From assembly GCA_963666315.2 (NCBI GenBank), contig CAXXHG010000043.1:256001-320000 (forward strand): DNA of 64,000 nucleotides. The letters run 5' to 3'. The DNA comes from Candidatus Binatia bacterium (GTDB lineage: Bacteria; Desulfobacterota; Binatia; Bin18). Both the position numbers and the translations under genes were made by a program. Shown one piece after another: positions 53,249 to 62,402 of the stretch (position 1 is the first letter of the stretch; every line of letters begins with the position of its first letter). The notes under the pieces were generated by a model, which was not told the origin of the DNA, made no database searches, and saw nothing but the letters and a program-made list of their open reading frames with translations.

Positions 53249-55761
53249 TGCTGTCGCTCCTCCGTTGAGTGTGAATTGAGAGTTCCTTCTTCGTTTCCTT
53301 CTCTACTTGCTTCGCTGTCCTCTTTTACTTCATCTTCTTCTACAAGCGCAAGACTGGACACGCGTTCCTGCGCGCCGATATTAAAAAGCTTAACCCCCTG
53401 GGTATTTCTCCCAATAATTCGCAGCTCAGCGATCCTGAGTCGGATAATCTTACCGCCGTCTGTGATGAGCATTAGATGATCGTTCTCTGTCACTTGCCTA
53501 ACGCCGCAGACTTCTCCAGTTTTCTCAGTCGTACGCATGGTACGGGCTCCCTTTCCCCCGCGTGACTGAACACGATAGGCGTCTATGCTACTGCGCTTGC
53601 CGTATCCTTGAGACGAAACGGTGAGTAGCGTAGCCTCTTGATAGAGTATCTCAAGGGACACCACCTCATCTTTCTCTTCGAGCGTAATGCCTCGGACACC
53701 GAACGTCCCACGGCCAGTTGCTCTTACTTCTTTTTCTGCAAATCGAATCGCTTTTCCTTTTTTTGTCGAAAGCAATATCTCTTGTTTGCCATCAGTCAGC
53801 TGAGCTCTAATCACCTCGTCATCTGCTCCGAGGGAGAGAGCAATGATTCCGCCACGGCGTGGATTTGCATACGCCATGAGTTCAGTTTTCTTGACGTGCC
53901 CTTTGCGGGTCGCAAAGACGATGAAGCGGTCGTCTTGAAACTCTCGTATAGGAAGAAAGGATGAAATTTTCTCACCTTCTTGAAGCTGCAGAAGATTGAC
54001 GATCGCTTTTCCTTTTGCCGTACGACTCCCATGCGGAATTTCATAGACTTTGACCCAATGTACTTTTCCAATTGAGGAGAAAAATAATAGGAAGGCGTGC
54101 GTGGAGGAAATAAACATGTGTTCAACAAAGTCTTCCCCCCGCGTTGTTGCTCCGACAACGCCTTTCCCCCCACGACGCTGTGAGCGATATTCAGTGACTG
54201 GATTTCTTTTGATATACCCGGCGTGCGATATCGTCACGACCACGTCTTCTTCAGCAATGAGATCTTCATCGGAAAGATCCGCACTATCAGGCAGTATTAC
54301 GGTCCGTCGTTCGTCAGAGAATCGTGAACGCAGGTCGGCGAGCTCTTCTTTGATAACCGCGTCGATCTTTTCCGCGCTGGCCAGAGTACGTTGTAAAGCG
54401 GCCATCAGACTCACCGTTTCGTTGTGCTCTGACAGAATCTTCTCTTGTTCAAGCTGGGTGAGACGTTGCAGACGCATATCGAGAATGGCCTGAGATTGCG
54501 TTTCACTCAAAGAAAATTGATCCATGAGGGTTTGACGCACGCTGGCCGGATTCTGTCCTTGACGGATGACCTGAAGCACAGGGTCAAGGTTATCAAGGGC
54601 AATTTTGAGCCCTTCAAGAAGGTGAAGACGCTCCCCCGCTTTCTTCAGGTCGAACGCAGTCCGACGTCGGACGACCTCACGGCGGTGTTCAAGAAAGTGC
54701 ATCAGGGTATCTTTGAGGGTAAGGAGACGTGGGCGACCATCGACAATGGCGAGAAGAATAACCCCAAAGGAATCCTGAAGCGGTGTCATTTTATAGAGCT
54801 GGTTGAGTATCACCTCCGGAACAACGTCTCGCTTGAGCTCGATAACAATGCGCATCCCATCTCTGTCAGACTCGTCACGCAGGTCAGAGATTCCCGTGAT
54901 GCGCTTCTCGTTGACGAGATCCGCGATACGCTCAATCAAACGAGCTTTATTGACTTGAAAAGGAATCTCATGAGCAATAATGCGACTTCTGCTTGTCTTC
55001 TCGTTCTCCTCAATGGACATTCGGGCCCGCATCCGGATAATGCCTCGTCCCGTTTCATAGGCAGCACGAATCCCAGCTTTTCCATGAATAAAGGCCCCGG
55101 TTGGAAAGTCCGGGCCTGGGATATACTGCATCAAATCGCGGTTTTCGAGAGTCTGATTCTCAAGAAGGGCAAGAAGGGCATCGGTGACTTCGCCAAGATT
55201 ATGCGGAGGAATGTTTGTTGACATTCCCACCGCGATCCCCGAAGAACCATTGACAAGCAGATTTGGAAGTTTACTCGGGAAAACAGCAGGCTCATGACTC
55301 GTATCGTCATAGGTAGGAATGAAATTTACCGTTCCTCTATCGATATCCGCCAGTACTTCCCCAGAGATGCGGGTCATCCGAACCTCGGTATACCGCATCG
55401 CAGCAGGAGAATCGCCATCAACCGAACCAAAGTTTCCCTGTCCGTCGATGAGAGGGTAGCGAAGCGAAAAGTCCTGTGCCATGCGGACAAGGGTGTCGTA
55501 TACGGCCGAATCTCCATGCGGGTGGTATTTTCCAATTACGTCACCGACGACGCGCGCAGACTTTTTATACGAACGGTTCCATTCATTCCCAAGGTCGTGC
55601 ATGGCATACAGGACGCGCCGGTGAACTGGCTTCAGTCCATCACGGACATCGGGCAGCGCTCGACCAATGATCACACTCATGGCGTAATCCATATAGGACT
55701 GCCGCATCTCTTGTTCAATATTGACAGAGGGAAGGGGCTGGGAATCCGAATGGTCTTCCAT
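53245..55761 (-). CDS. gyrA: DNA gyrase subunit A
   Basis: [15 protein letters not shown] and GyrA-box QRRGGKG. Confidence 0.98.
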
Positions 55762-55840
55762 ACAGAGAAGATTCCTTTTTGATTGCTAGTGTTGGGCGTG
55801 GAGGTCTAGAACAAAACAGCACGAACGGCCTATTGTGAGA

Positions 55841-58288
<2,448 letters not shown>

Positions 58289-58360
58289 TTAAAGAGTAGC
58301 ATTTTCTCTGTCTTACGTAAACCGGAGGGGATATCATATATTCAGTAAAACACGTTTTTA

Positions 58361-59515
58361 CTAATTAATTTTCATGGGCATAATGATATAAGAAAATTGG
58401 TCGTTTTCTTTGGTCTGGAGCAGTCCTGGACTCATCTCATCTTTAAGGGAAAGTATGACCGTTTCTCCCTCAGTCATGACATGTAACGCCTCTATAATAT
58501 ATCTCCCATTGAACCCGATAGATAACCCGTCTCCATCGTATGAAGTAGGAATCTCCTCTGTTCCCTCCCCCAAGTCAGGAGTATTGACCGAAATATCTAC
58601 CTTGCCTTTCTCAAATTGTAATTTTACGCCGCGGGATCTTTCTGTAGTCAATATGAGAATGCGGCGAAGAGCACTGAGAAAGTCGTCACGTGAAAATTCG
58701 ATGCGGTGCTTATGCTCTTTTGGGACAATCTGCTGGTAATCGGGAAAGTCTCCTTCTATCAGACGCATAGAGAGTTCAGTTGTATTTTTCCTCAGGTTTA
58801 CGACTGACTCATTGATAGATATTTCTATTGTTTCCTCGCTCCGCTCAAGGAGTTTCCGTGTTTCAACCAAACCTTTTTTAGGAAGAATGACACTCGGCCA
58901 ATCGGGTAGAGAAGGAAGATCAACCTCCTTTTCTATAAGAGAGAGGCGGTGGCCGTCGCTGGCAACCATACGAATCTTTCCCTCTTTATGTGTTTCTAGA
59001 TGCACGCCGTTCAGGTTGAGACGGGTCTCATCTGGCGAGGTCGCAAAGAGAGTCTTCTCAATCATGTCCCGCAGCATTGGTCCGGGGAGGGAGATAAATT
59101 GATCAGCCAAGGCAGCGTTTTCTTCTTTGTGTTCCTTTCGTCCGGTTATAGTAGGAAACTCTTTTGGATCCAGGCTTGCGATTCGGAAGCGAGATTTTCC
59201 ACTATTGATCTCTATCCATCCGTTTCCGCTCGAACGTAAAAGGACCTGGCCTGACGGCAGTTCACGAATAATCTCATAGAGTTTTCTTGCATCTGCTGTA
59301 ATTGCTCCAGTAGTTTTCACCTTAGCCTTACACTGCTGACGAATCCCAATTTCAAGGTCGGTTGCTCCAAGGGAAATGATTCCCTTTTCCCCTTCCTGTG
59401 GGTCCGCTTCGATGAGAACGTGAGAAAGCATAGGAAGAGATGAACGTTTTTCAACCACACCTTGGACGAGGTATAAACACTGAAGGAGGTCTTCCTGATT
59501 GACGCTGAATTCCAT
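58361..59515 (-). CDS. dnaN: DNA polymerase III beta sliding clamp
   Basis: ATDLE, ASDGHRL, RLIEGDFPDY and IIMPM motifs. Confidence 0.97.
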   Translation of the reverse strand: MEFSVNQEDLLQCLYLVQGVVEKRSSLPMLSHVLIEADPQEGEKGIISLGATDLEIGIRQQCKAKVKTTGAITADARKLYEIIRELPSGQVLLRSSGNGWIEINSGKSRFRIASLDPKEFPTITGRKEHKEENAALADQFISLPGPMLRDMIEKTLFATSPDETRLNLNGVHLETHKEGKIRMVASDGHRLSLIEKEVDLPSLPDWPSVILPKKGLVETRKLLERSEETIEISINESVVNLRKNTTELSMRLIEGDFPDYQQIVPKEHKHRIEFSRDDFLSALRRILILTTERSRGVKLQFEKGKVDISVNTPDLGEGTEEIPTSYDGDGLSIGFNGRYIIEALHVMTEGETVILSLKDEMSPGLLQTKENDQFSYIIMPMKIN

Positions 59516-59696
59516 ATTCCTCCCTTCTTCACTTTCTTATGAGCTGAATTTTTTACTTCTCGCTCTCTTATTATTTTTATGATTACTATTATTTCTTATA
59601 CTTCTATTATTCTTATTATTCATTAATATATAAAAGTAGTTAATAGTAGTAGGGCCTGTGGATATGTGAATAAGTGGGTTAAGTATTTGATTTATA

Positions 59697-59735
59697 AAGA
59701 CAAGTTATCCACAGGGGCTGTGGATAACTTGTCTT
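59697..59735. repeat. Perfect 18-bp inverted repeat containing two DnaA boxes
   Basis: AAGACAAGTTATCCACAG-GGG-CTGTGGATAACTTGTCTT. Confidence 0.9.
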
Positions 59736-59754
59736 AGTCTCCTTTAACTGAAAC

Positions 59755-59834
59755 AGGTTATCCATAGGTTATCCATAGGTTATCCATAGGTTATCCACAG
59801 GTTATCCACAGGTTATCCACAGGTTATCCACAGG
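59755..59834 (+). repeat. Tandem array of seven 11-bp DnaA-box repeats
   Basis: (AGGTTATCCAT)x3 (AGGTTATCCAC)x4 AGG; gives four TTATCCACA and three TTATCCATA. Confidence 0.95.
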
Positions 59835-59843
59835 GAGAACGGC

Positions 59844-60496
59844 CTAGTGGGCAATCATGATTTCAATCCGGGTGAGGATATCGCGCAGCTCCCCGTCCTG
59901 TTTGAGCCGGGTCTCTATCGTATGACACGCATACAGCACCGTGGTGTGATCCGTCGACTCCGAGGAGAGATACACCACGCTGCCGCCGCCCTTTTTGACC
60001 AGCGTCTCGTGGCCAATGGCATTAATCAGATGCGTCTTCCGTAACCCCACCCCACCGTAAATGAACAGCGGATTGTAGTTCTTGCGGGGGTGTTTGCTCA
60101 CCGCCCGGGCGCCGTATGCGCAAATTGATTGCTGCCGCCCACCACAAACGAGGCAAACGTGTAGTGCGCCACCAGCCCGTTCTTCTGGGCCGCGGCTTTG
60201 TCTTCGGCCTGGGCCGCCTGCTGTTGCTCTTCGGCTGGAAACAGTTCGCCTTGGAGCTTTTCTCGCACATGGAGTACGAGGTGCGTCGGCTGCCCCCGCA
60301 CCGCGGCAAACGCCTCCTCTATGGGACCCACGAGATGGCTCAGCAGCCAATCGCGAAAGAGCGCACTGGGCACCTCCAGATGAAAGGTGTCCGCATCGAC
60401 GGACAGCGGCCGCAGTGGCTTCAGCCACGTCTCCGTCGACGTCTTGCCCACGCGCTCCTCCACCAGCCCCAACACCTGCTCCCACACCCGTTGCAT
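59844..60496 (-). pseudogene. dnaA: Disrupted chromosomal replication initiator DnaA
   Basis: Domain I ([14 protein letters not shown]) and [15 protein letters not shown] are in one frame. After a frameshift near 60110 comes [17 protein letters not shown]...YLSSES joined directly to DHTTVLYA. Confidence 0.9.
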
Positions 60497-60524
60497 ACCG
60501 GCCCCTCCCGCCCCGGCGTCTCAG

Positions 60525-60602
60525 TTATCCACACTTGTGGATAACTCTCCAACTCCTTCTCTCCCCTATGAAAATCCCCTGCCCCCTCCGGAGTTGTCCA
60601 CA
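60525..60602. promoter_or_regulatory. DnaA boxes upstream of dnaA
   Basis: TTATCCACA (60525-60533), TGTGGATAA (60536-60544) and TTGTCCACA (60594-60602). Confidence 0.8.
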
Positions 60603-61118
60603 CATACCTCTCTCCGTACCTGTCTCTCTGCCCCAGGGGTACCCCGGTGTACCGACCACGAGATCGGGGGCAAGAGAAGCAGACCCATTGCTACTCAAAA
60701 ACTTGGTCTCTGATTTCGTCAGCCCTGACGGGCTAACGGTCTTGTGTCTTGAATGCGTCTTAAACGCTTTGGACACACAATGCAAGAAAAAATGCCCAAG
60801 CCGGGCGAAGTATGGTATTTTACTCACCAATCTCGCTCGTCTAACCCCGAGTGATACCCGCCGGTTGCCCCGCCGTGGCCGCCCCGGCCCTTAGCCTCTC
60901 GTTTTTCCAGGCCTTTCTTCTGCCCGCCGCGGGATAAAAACCCTCGTACGTCTCACTTTTAGTCCTATACTTGGCAGATTCACTATATCATCCTGGATAA
61001 GTGCCCCAATTCTCAGCGGGAGCGCCTCTTTTTGTAAGACCTGGTTTTTCCCCTTGACTCTCCTCTGGGCGGATGGTAGCAGAGGAAAATCTCAAAATTT
61101 GGGTAGTGGGTAGGATGG

Positions 61119-62402
61119 ATGTCTATATCGCAAAAGCTTTTCAAAGAAGCACAAAAATATATTCCCGGTGGAGTAAATAGTCCCGTCCGTGCATGGCGTG
61201 CCGTTGGTGGCGATCCGCTTTTTATCCAAAGAGGGAAAGGCTGCCGCATTACTGACGCGGATGGGCGGGAATATATTGACTACGTTGGATCGTGGGGGCC
61301 CTTGATCGCGGGGCACGCGCATCCACAGGTGGTCGGTGCACTTGAGCGTGTGGTGAAGCAAGGAACAAGTTTCGGTGCACCAACCGTAAAAGAAATTGAG
61401 CTGGCAAAAATACTCATTCAGACAATTCCCTCCCTTGAGAAAGTCCGCCTGACATCTTCCGGCACTGAGGCGACTATGACCGCACTGCGTCTTGCACGCG
61501 GCTATACCGGACGCGCAAAGATTATCAAGTTTTCCGGCGGTTATCACGGCCACAACGATGCGCTGCTGGTGAGAGCCGGTTCAGGAGCGCTCACGTTTAG
61601 CACCCCGGATAGCGAGGGCGTCCCTGAGGCGTTTTCCAGCCAAACATTAGTAGCGGAATACAACGACCTGGCGAGTGTGACAGCCTATCTTGAGGCCGAT
61701 CCCGGAGGGGTGGCCGCTGTTATTGTTGAGCCTGTTCCTGGCAATATGGGGCTTATTTTGCCAGAGCAAGGATTCCTCGAAGGATTGCGTAGGCTCACGC
61801 AAGAGTATGGAGTAGTCCTCATCTTTGATGAAGTGATGACGGGCTGCCGTTTGGCCCGTGGTGGGGTGCAGGAGATCTACAACATAGACCCGGACGTAAC
61901 GTGCTTAGGAAAGGTGATCGGCGGCGGTCTTCCTCTCGCTGCTGTTGGGGGCAAAGCGGCTATAATGGATGTGCTTGCCCCTTCGGGGGCTGTCTACCAA
62001 GCGGGCACGCTGTCAGGAAATCCATTGGCTGTGACTGCAGGTATTGAAACGCTCAAGCTCGTGCAGGGTCCTGGAGCCTATGAGCGCCTGAATGCACTTG
62101 GGGATATGCTTGCCGAAGGATTAAGAAAGGCTATTCGAGAGACTGAGACGAAGGCGTGCGTAAACCAAATGGGATCCATGTTCACCATTTTTTTTGGGGT
62201 GGAGCACGTCCGTGATTATGAGACGGCGACCCAGAGTGACACAGAGATGTTTGCTCGGTATTTTCACGGAATGATAGCACACGGCATCTATCTTCCCCCG
62301 TCTCAATTCGAAGCCGCGTTTCTCTCCGTAGCCCATGGCGAAGCTGAAATCCAAGAGACGATCCAAGCGGCCGGTACCGTCCTCAAGAGTCTGCGCGCAT
62401 GA
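61119..62402 (+). CDS. hemL: Glutamate-1-semialdehyde 2,1-aminomutase
   Basis: PGGVNSPVRA, SGTEATM, FDEVMTG, GKVIGGGLP and YQAGTLSGNP motifs. Confidence 0.98.
   Translation: MSISQKLFKEAQKYIPGGVNSPVRAWRAVGGDPLFIQRGKGCRITDADGREYIDYVGSWGPLIAGHAHPQVVGALERVVKQGTSFGAPTVKEIELAKILIQTIPSLEKVRLTSSGTEATMTALRLARGYTGRAKIIKFSGGYHGHNDALLVRAGSGALTFSTPDSEGVPEAFSSQTLVAEYNDLASVTAYLEADPGGVAAVIVEPVPGNMGLILPEQGFLEGLRRLTQEYGVVLIFDEVMTGCRLARGGVQEIYNIDPDVTCLGKVIGGGLPLAAVGGKAAIMDVLAPSGAVYQAGTLSGNPLAVTAGIETLKLVQGPGAYERLNALGDMLAEGLRKAIRETETKACVNQMGSMFTIFFGVEHVRDYETATQSDTEMFARYFHGMIAHGIYLPPSQFEAAFLSVAHGEAEIQETIQAAGTVLKSLRA

Follow-up and report, generated by a model that had tools for sequence, protein, structure and literature searches.

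A disabled dnaA gene beside an intact replication origin

This study examined dnaA, the gene for the replication initiator DnaA, in a 64,000-nucleotide stretch of DNA (the window; C43:256001-320000) from a Candidatus Binatia bacterium. The genome (G000; GenBank GCA_963666315.2) is a metagenome-assembled genome (MAG) of 4.99 Mb in 47 contigs with 92% completeness. In the window, a dnaA remnant lies between hemL and a replication origin (oriC), and dnaN and gyrB lie on the other side of the origin (Table 1). A first-pass annotation of the window had described this dnaA as multiply disabled and had suggested that the lineage replicates without DnaA or that a relocated dnaA copy serves the origin in trans. 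The results revealed that the gene is indeed disabled by a frameshift, a substitution (G153R), and a 226-codon deletion, and that an intact, nearly identical dnaA is present on another contig, C15.

The lesions were placed by alignment with the intact C15 paralogue and with the orthologue in G036, the closest relative (85-90% DNA identity). The remnant consists of the start codon, domains I-II, and the first part of the AAA+ domain, followed by the final 36 codons and the stop codon. All three lesions named by the first-pass annotation were recovered at the positions given for them: the frameshift, the altered Walker A motif, and the junction said to cost more than 200 residues. The deletion joins C15 positions 280069 and 280750, with a net loss of 678 nt (approximately residues 182-407), and takes Walker B, the sensors, the lid, and the start of domain IV. 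Its ends exhibited no usable microhomology, only 2 filler nucleotides.

The open reading frame (ORF) listing under translation table 11 split the remnant into a 132-aa ORF (60098-60496) and an overlapping 213-aa ORF (59844-60485). The 132-aa ORF keeps the start codon and an unchanged upstream region, differs from the C15 protein by D22E, V59I, E65A, and A128T, and contains only DnaA_N according to Pfam; the 213-aa ORF contains only positions 13-80 of the 162 of PF00308. A whole-assembly search with PF08299 (Bac_DnaA_C) returned no match in the window copy. The window copy therefore lacks an uninterrupted ORF, an intact Walker A motif, and complete domains III and IV, and, judged from its sequence, the copy beside oriC is certainly non-functional.

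The adjacent origin kept the DnaA boxes, the GC motif, and the AT-rich unwinding stretch that had been attributed to it, and dnaN and gyrB are intact, as had been claimed. Eleven putative DnaA boxes (at most 1 mismatch) were located within 59657-59832, and the GC content of 59500-59799 was 0.32. The whole window contained 33 boxes compared with 9.96 expected, a count reached in 0 of 100 shuffles. The elements of oriC follow the order AT-rich stretch, TAGTAGTAG, GGGCC, paired boxes, inverted box pair, and tandem array; a box cluster thus adjoins an AT-rich stretch between dnaA and dnaN, as in an origin of the dnaA-dnaN type. This layout was common to G036 and to 4 of the 5 congeners compared (G012, G001, G018, and G014), whereas the high-GC G016 differed. 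The cumulative GC skew of C43 falls to approximately 220 kb, is flat to approximately 380 kb, and then rises, without a sharp turn; oriC, at approximately 315.6 kb, lies inside the flat part. C15 exhibited a uniformly negative GC skew with no switch at its dnaA gene. The origin probably still fires at its native site.

The tandem array (59753-59834) comprises 7.5 perfect copies of an 11-bp unit, ACAGGTTATCC, each containing a DnaA box, and ends approximately 10 nt from the dnaA stop codon. Three of its 7 boxes read TTATCCATA. Among the congeners, the copy number of the array ranged from 2 (G036) to 14 (G012); such length variation, together with the spacing of one helical turn, is unusual for an origin.

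An intact dnaA gene on contig C15

Searching the whole assembly with PF00308 (Bac_DnaA) identified two places, namely C15:280489-280965 (229.9 bits, in a 451-aa open frame) and the window remnant (58.7 bits); with PF08299, C15 was the sole match (99.8 bits). In the 443-aa C15 protein, PF11638 scored 45 bits, PF00308 227 bits (positions 3-161 of 162), PF22688 36 bits, and PF08299 101.7 bits (positions 1-69 of 69). The translation includes GGVGLGKT and VLILDDVQF, which agree with the patterns GxxGxGKT and hhhhDD and which we take to be the Walker A and Walker B motifs, respectively. Searching the assembly for Bac_DnaA and Bac_DnaA_C was among the checks that the first-pass annotation had proposed. 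Because an intact dnaA with all domains sits elsewhere in the assembly, the suggestion of DnaA-independent replication was refuted; the lineage is not dnaA-less.

The C15 protein exhibited 91% identity to that of G036 and 74-79% identity to those of 20 congeners, and it was nested in the genus tree. The ratio of nonsynonymous to synonymous substitution rates (dN/dS) between the C15 and G036 genes was 0.126, indicating that the ectopic C15 copy stayed under purifying selection while the native copy in the window drifts. The ectopic gene is presumably expressed and functional.

Table 1. Features of the dnaA locus and of related dnaA loci; positions refer to the window unless a contig is named
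Feature	Position	Strand	Remarks
gyrB, intact, 795 aa	55841..58228	(-)	
dnaN, intact, 384 aa	58361..59515	(-)	
oriC, between dnaN and the dnaA remnant	59516..59843	(.)	GC 0.34; AT-rich stretch ~59566-59650; TAGTAGTAG and GGGCC; paired boxes
Segment common to the window and C15:279960-281767 (dnaA and 475 bp upstream)	59843..60971	(-)	11 substitutions, 1 indel, deletion
dnaA pseudogene, ancestral locus	59844..60496	(-)	98-99% identity to the intact C15 dnaA
Internal-deletion junction	59952..59955	(-)	C15 280070-280749 (680 nt) missing; 2 filler nt at 59953-59954
Walker A codon 153, GGG to CGG (G to R), GGVGLGKT to GGVGLRKT	60039..60041	(-)	GGG in C15 and G036
132-aa ORF upstream of the frameshift (DnaA domain I and linker)	60098..60496	(-)	PF11638, 49.7 bits
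Frameshift, 1-nt deletion, codon 129	60110	(-)	one C of CC gone; extra base present in C15 and G036
dnaA upstream (promoter/autoregulation) region in the segment	60497..60971	(-)	putative DnaA boxes 60525-60533, 60536-60544, 60594-60602
hemL, intact, 427 aa; conserved neighbour on the other side of dnaA	61119..62402	(+)	
Intact dnaA, 443 aa	C15:279961-281292	(-)	DnaA_N, Bac_DnaA, lid, Bac_DnaA_C
dnaA loci of G019	C17, L159 4719-6461; C32, L160 3857-5635		two near-identical copies

The duplicated segment

The segment shared by the two loci measures 1,808 bp on C15 and runs from 1-2 nt beyond the dnaA stop codon to 475 bp upstream of the start codon, and the flanks of both loci were unique within the assembly. 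Window 59955-60971 was 99.0% identical to C15 280750-281767 (9 mismatches and 1 gap), and window 59843-59952 was 98.2% identical to C15 279960-280069 (2 mismatches). Nine of the substitutions between the copies are coding (8 nonsynonymous and 1 synonymous), and 2 further substitutions lie at the distal upstream end. Polarisation against G036 assigned 6 coding substitutions, the frameshift, and the deletion to the window copy as derived changes and 1 coding substitution (E65) to C15, and it left 2 ambiguous; positions 59893 and 59933 were polarised by reading the sequences by eye. Three of the 6 substitutions derived on the pseudogene (59933-60431) are G:C-to-C:G transversions, two of them Gly to Arg, an odd spectrum for so few changes.

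The two copies exhibited no difference in the 501 bp of 60432-60932, which comprise the promoter region and the first 65 nt of the gene, compared with 10 differences in the remaining 587 bp of the gene body (Fisher p = 0.0024). This finding indicates either that the stretch was recently converted or that the upstream DnaA boxes of both loci are under selection.

Within the upstream region, a terminator-like hairpin followed by a T-run was observed at 60794-60806 on the reverse strand, approximately 300 nt before the dnaA start, and the upstream region may give rise to a small transcript. An Rfam search of 59400-61200 returned only two chance-level microRNA matches (E 0.3 and 0.67), which were rejected. 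A promoter scan returned 3 sigma-70-like sites in total, all in the AT-rich oriC stretch and none in the region upstream of dnaA; this count is uninformative compared with the 1.3 expected from shuffles.

The ancestral locus and the ectopic site in related genomes

The gene order gyrB-dnaN-(approximately 280-390 bp)-dnaA-hemL was present in all 5 congeners inspected in detail. In the survey of the genus, both dnaA and dnaN were detected at E <= 1e-50 in 25 of 27 other genomes, and G009 and G037 had neither gene. The two genes were less than 450 bp apart on one contig in 24 of these 25 congeners; in G008, they were located at the ends of separate contigs. Because dnaA adjoins dnaN in 24 of 25 congeners, the window locus was considered the ancestral dnaA site.

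The C15 insert is flanked by a luciferase-like monooxygenase gene and a coenzyme A (CoA)-transferase gene. In all 3 distant congeners examined (G004, G031, and G012), this site was empty, with the flanking genes 58-147 bp apart. In G000, approximately 3.5 kb separate the same genes, comprising the dnaA segment and approximately 1.5 kb that carry a 320-aa ORF with a weak Pyr_redox_2 match. Coordinate arithmetic in complete or near-complete congeners placed the ectopic site approximately 1.9-2.1 Mb from dnaA, approximately 41% of the chromosome, a distance that would apply to G000 provided that synteny is conserved.

Around the ectopic insert, a search for repeats revealed neither direct nor inverted ones bracketing the dnaA segment, and no transposase, integrase, or transfer RNA gene was found among the flanking genes; on these grounds, a mobile-element origin of the duplicate was dropped. 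The end of the segment at the box array had raised the idea of an RNA-mediated retro-copy, but the 35 nt of divergent hemL included in the corresponding segment of G019, described below, fit a DNA-level duplication better. A sequence of approximately 40 nt near the insert (G000:C15, approximately 284670) recurred many times at 86-100% identity in all five congeners searched and looks like a short interspersed repeat of the genus.

In G036, the native dnaA is intact and lies on contig C75, between hemL and dnaN. Its contig C47, which is syntenic with the left flank on C15, stops 75 nt into the 3' end of dnaA, and its contig C79, which is syntenic with the right flank, begins within the segment, 55 nt from its distal end. 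In G037 (80% complete), both junctions are likewise broken, on C109 and C201, and the left-flank contig stops 57 nt into the 3' end of dnaA. The occurrence of the same junctions in G000, G036, and G037 therefore indicates one insertion with identical boundaries that is common to the three species.

Probable concerted evolution of the two copies

The two copies in G000 are 99% alike, compared with 85% identity to the dnaA of G036. The ends of the ectopic copy in G036 matched the native copy of the same genome at 68 of 69 and 55 of 55 positions, whereas the 3' end was 88-90% identical to the copies of G000. Over the 124 nt of ectopic sequence available from G036, paralogues at shared loci were thus closer within a genome than orthologues were between genomes. 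Because this relationship was observed at orthologous loci, concerted evolution by gene conversion is indicated, and gene conversion was probably the process that homogenised the dnaA copies.

A second case was found in G019, a member of another family of the same order, which carries two intact dnaA genes differing at 1 of 441 residues. One copy occupies the native hemL-dnaA-dnaN-gyrB locus, and the other lies on a different contig beside luciferase-like genes that are unrelated to those of G000 (24-31% identity). Their shared segment of approximately 1.79 kb stops immediately ahead of the box array, 14 nt past the stop codon, and at the other end takes in 35 nt of hemL. Among 56 genomes of the order, two assembled full-length, near-identical dnaA copies were found only in G019, and the G000 clade exhibited one full-length dnaA with remnants or broken contigs; short-read assemblies would hide further pairs of this type.

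Divergent DnaA homologues were also observed. Several genomes of the same class (G020-G030) carry a second full-length homologue that is 35-47% identical to the query, and a 213-aa open frame at G064:C347:1534-2052 has a match to DnaA residues 3-176 alone. Paralogues of DnaA seem to be common in the class.

Base composition of dnaA

The GC content at third codon positions (GC3) of dnaA was 0.795 in G000 and 0.761 in G036 (approximately 0.78 for the clade), whereas in both genomes that of dnaN was 0.44 and that of hemL 0.53; gyrB, which is absent from the recovered G036 locus, had a GC3 of 0.44 in G000. The dnaA genes of 22 low-GC congeners ranged from 0.42 to 0.53, and those of the high-GC G013 and G016 from 0.76 to 0.78. 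The GC3 of dnaA exceeded that of dnaN by 0.35 in G000 and by 0.33 in G036, compared with differences of -0.07 to +0.04 in 24 congeners. The raised GC was confined to the duplicated segment, and the G000 dnaA was among the 11 highest-GC3 genes of 1,939 ORFs of at least 300 aa (mean 0.612, standard deviation 0.051).

The origin-proximal genes dnaN and gyrB (window 55000-60000) were themselves low, their GC3 of 0.44 lying below the 1st percentile (0.50) of the long ORFs, with a genome mean of 0.61. Origin-proximal GC3 was likewise low in G036 and G019.

Other duplicated genes of G000 were also GC-rich. The 69 of 3,039 ORFs with a second copy had a GC3 of 0.657, compared with 0.607 for the rest (one-sided Mann-Whitney p ~1e-7), in a comparison that counts pairs twice and is confounded by mobile and highly expressed genes. 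The two copies of the EF-Tu gene tuf (C10:138902-140092 and C10:152757-153947) were 99.9% identical with a GC3 of 0.78, and those of the myo-inositol-1-phosphate-synthase gene (C21:202779-203891 and C37:40187-41299) were 100% identical with a GC3 of 0.80; both pairs were among the highest-GC3 ORFs of the genome. The pattern fits GC-biased gene conversion (gBGC) as the process that may lie behind the GC3 rise of dnaA, but it is no proof. In G019, the dnaA GC3 of 0.59 exceeded that of the native neighbours (0.43-0.46; excess of the duplicate pair over dnaN +0.16) and equalled that of the ectopic neighbours (0.56-0.60); regional composition is therefore an alternative to gBGC in that genome. Synonymous sites were saturated in comparison with outgroups (proportion of synonymous differences, pS, 0.77-0.83).

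The DnaA and DnaN trees, the latter a quick version, both recovered the pair of G000 and G036 with 100% support, apart from G013 and G016, with stems of 0.20 and 0.16, respectively. Identities to G036, G012, and G016 were 91%, 77%, and 61% for DnaA and 88%, 81%, and 65% for DnaN, and the best DnaA match outside the genus, in the 56 genomes of the order, was 72%. Because the two trees agree, vertical descent with a compositional shift is likelier than transfer.

Read support for the lesions

Read support was assessed on Logan contigs (k=31) of approximately 2-6x depth, which is unusable as a measure of copy number, from 4 runs (X1-X4) of three studies; X1 and X2 belong to one study, which may be the source of the MAG itself. 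A 3,606-nt contig of X1 covers 59843-61300 with no gap relative to the window and therefore carries both the deletion junction and the frameshift. In X2, the junction is spanned by a contig of 82 nt that extends 50 nt to the left of it and 30 nt to the right (32 nt with the filler bases), and other X2 contigs run into the undeleted form at both breakpoints (depth 3-3.6, compared with 4 for the junction contig). At 59950 and 60110, where the first-pass annotation had called for read mapping, both lesions were thus present on contigs, although this support is thin and of low depth. The ectopic left junction was present in X1 and X2, and the ectopic right and native right junctions were present in X3 and X4; the latter two runs lacked cover over parts of 59848-60295 and are uninformative on the deletion there. 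Among the matches listed, none of the contigs ran across 59833-59843, where the box array gives way to the remnant.

In X1, X2, and X4, contigs of much greater depth (41-65 in the longer contigs and 500-1,000 in the array words) share the array at 59788-59833 and continue into a different dnaA 3' end, which indicates a more abundant relative in the same samples.

Interpretation and alternative explanations

The dnaA gene in the window is very probably the decaying ancestral copy of a gene that was duplicated, homogenised by gene conversion, and then lost at its native site, with the ectopic DnaA acting in trans at the native oriC. In the common ancestor of G000, G036, and G037, a segment of approximately 1.8 kb, comprising dnaA and approximately 475 bp upstream with DnaA boxes, would have been copied to another place on the chromosome, where it came to lie between the genes for the luciferase-like monooxygenase and the CoA-transferase. 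Gene conversion between the loci would then have kept the copies near-identical within each genome. The native copy of G000 would later have been hit by the 680-nt deletion, the frameshift, and the Walker A change, while the ectopic copy stayed intact under purifying selection. The DnaA from the ectopic gene would bind the unchanged, box-rich oriC beside dnaN and start replication there in trans. The second suggestion of the first-pass annotation, that of a relocated copy serving the origin, is thus supported by the ancestral locus in 24 of 25 congeners, the empty ectopic site in 3 of 3, and the unchanged origin within the broad skew minimum.

Several observations weigh against this reading. 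With G000 in 47 contigs and 92% complete, the distance between the C15 gene and oriC is not fixed by the assembly. The interiors of the ectopic copies in G036 and G037 are unassembled, leaving only 124 nt of ectopic sequence in G036. Because the GC-skew minimum is broad (220-380 kb), it gives the origin no more than a rough location. The extra base of the intact copy at 60110 appeared on none of the contigs from the 4 runs, a weak point, as such contigs drop variants. The X1 contig is a mosaic in which the deleted form is joined to the left flank of C15 and to the right flank of the native locus; because contigs are mosaic between the copies, the deletion cannot be phased with its flank, and its locus depends on the MAG assembly alone.

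It is scarcely credible that the lineage lost functional DnaA and initiates replication by another route, whether dependent on PriA and R-loops, on recombination, or on a foreign initiator. Such a loss would agree with the certain failure of the gene beside oriC, but the C15 gene is intact and typical, with all four domain families, the dN/dS value indicates purifying selection on it and its G036 counterpart, and oriC has kept its full set of DnaA boxes. An artefact, in which two 99%-identical repeats were mis-phased in the metagenome assembly, so that the deleted allele is the ectopic copy or belongs to a minority strain and the native dnaA is intact, is improbable. The X1 contig tying the C15 left flank to the deleted form, the visibly mosaic contigs with both forms at similar depth in X2, and the intact native copy in the sister species G036 all speak for such an error. 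However, equal depth also fits one copy of each form per genome, and the junction is located 110 nt from the native left boundary with the linked variants 59893 and 59933 between, a distance that ordinary reads and large k-mers can phase. In the MAG, C43 carries every lesion and 6 of the 7 coding substitutions that could be polarised, and C15 has the ancestral states, an outcome that is unlikely to result from a random mosaic. An intact dnaA exists even under this error, and the main conclusion stands.

The composition of dnaA invites another explanation, namely that a GC-rich dnaA cassette was imported into the C15 site from an unsampled relative of higher GC content and then overwrote the native gene. 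The genus does include high-GC species (G013 and G016), and both the contrast in GC3 between dnaA and its neighbours or low-GC congeners and the restriction of the rise to the duplicated segment agree with such an import. We nevertheless consider it unlikely: the DnaA and DnaN trees both pair G000 with G036 on similar stems, the identities of the two proteins run parallel, within the 56 genomes of the order, no DnaA from outside the genus came closer than 72%, and it is difficult to see how homologous conversion could have overwritten a native gene of only approximately 70% identity together with an upstream region that does not align. It is about equally doubtful that the remnant is not inert, with its upstream region or the 132-aa ORF kept as half of a bipartite origin, for DnaA titration, or as a small domain-I regulator. 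The ORF retains its start codon and DnaA_N, and the pseudogene lineage would be expected to have accumulated approximately 6 changes in the stretch that exhibits none (P(0) = 0.0025). A recent conversion tract, however, explains this stretch without any function, and purifying selection is not evident from the 4 differences in the ORF, of which 3 lie in the DnaA_N part and the fourth is A128T.

Comparison with known systems

In many bacteria, dnaA is not next to oriC; in E. coli, oriC lies between gidA and mioC, and in Caulobacter, Cori lies beside hemE. The arrangement proposed here resembles these systems in that DnaA from a distant gene would act in trans on a box-rich origin. It differs in that the separation is in progress, with the dead ancestral copy still in place and the ancestral arrangement present in 24 of 25 congeners. 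Loss or pseudogenisation of dnaA is rare and is known mainly from insect endosymbionts, reportedly including Blochmannia, and from some cyanobacteria. These organisms likewise have a disabled dnaA at the usual locus but are not known to carry another dnaA; G000, in contrast, has an intact paralogue and a genome of approximately 5 Mb with no sign of reduction.

Frequently recombining sequences are reported by Lassalle et al. (2015) to have raised GC3 in bacteria through gBGC. The converting dnaA, tuf, and inositol-1-phosphate-synthase pairs of G000, all among its highest-GC3 ORFs, are similar in this respect. To our knowledge, gBGC has not been demonstrated for intragenomic duplicates of an essential single-copy gene.

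Duplicated tuf genes (tufA and tufB) undergo concerted evolution by gene conversion, as described in the main text of a survey of such genes (PMC6053082). As in tufA and tufB, the two dnaA copies occupy different contexts and are closer within a genome than between species, and the tuf pair of G000 itself is 99.9% identical. The gene described here differs in being the replication initiator and in that one copy is now a pseudogene. The word dnaA does not occur in the main text of that survey (PMC6053082).

A literature search that covered articles without their supplements revealed no report of near-identical dnaA duplicates, of concerted evolution of dnaA, or of a dnaA pseudogene with an intact paralogue. 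The case is a new example of known processes, namely duplication, concerted evolution, and loss of the ancestral copy, acting on a gene of usually fixed position.

Significance of the relocated initiator gene

These findings remove a false lead, that of a free-living bacterium replicating without DnaA. They also call for caution in automated calls of origins and essential genes in MAGs: assemblies collapse or break at near-identical copies of dnaA, as happened in G036 and G037.

The GC3 rise limited to the duplicated segment in G000 and G036, and smaller in the G019 pair, offers a testable case of gBGC in bacteria; further work should centre on this jump and on the repeated ending of the segment at the array of DnaA boxes. 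We tentatively put forward, as a possibility short of likely, a broader account in which dnaA and its promoter were duplicated ectopically at least twice in the order (in the clade of G000, G036, and G037, and in G019). The segment would end 8-14 nt short of the box array each time, the copies would evolve in concert, and gBGC would possibly lift GC3 from approximately 0.5 to approximately 0.8 (neighbours 0.44). G000 would then display a hand-over of the initiator from the origin to a site approximately 80% of the way toward the terminus, if synteny with the complete congeners holds. If this account is true, dnaA would be a natural, datable case of intragenomic gBGC and a core replication gene relocated by duplication and reciprocal loss.

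The locus exemplifies a natural break-up of the conserved dnaA-oriC-dnaN arrangement, in which dnaA and its regulatory region were duplicated and long homogenised and the ancestral copy was then lost. The three sister species, which are at different stages of this process, could reveal the effects on dosage and regulation of a dnaA located far from the origin.

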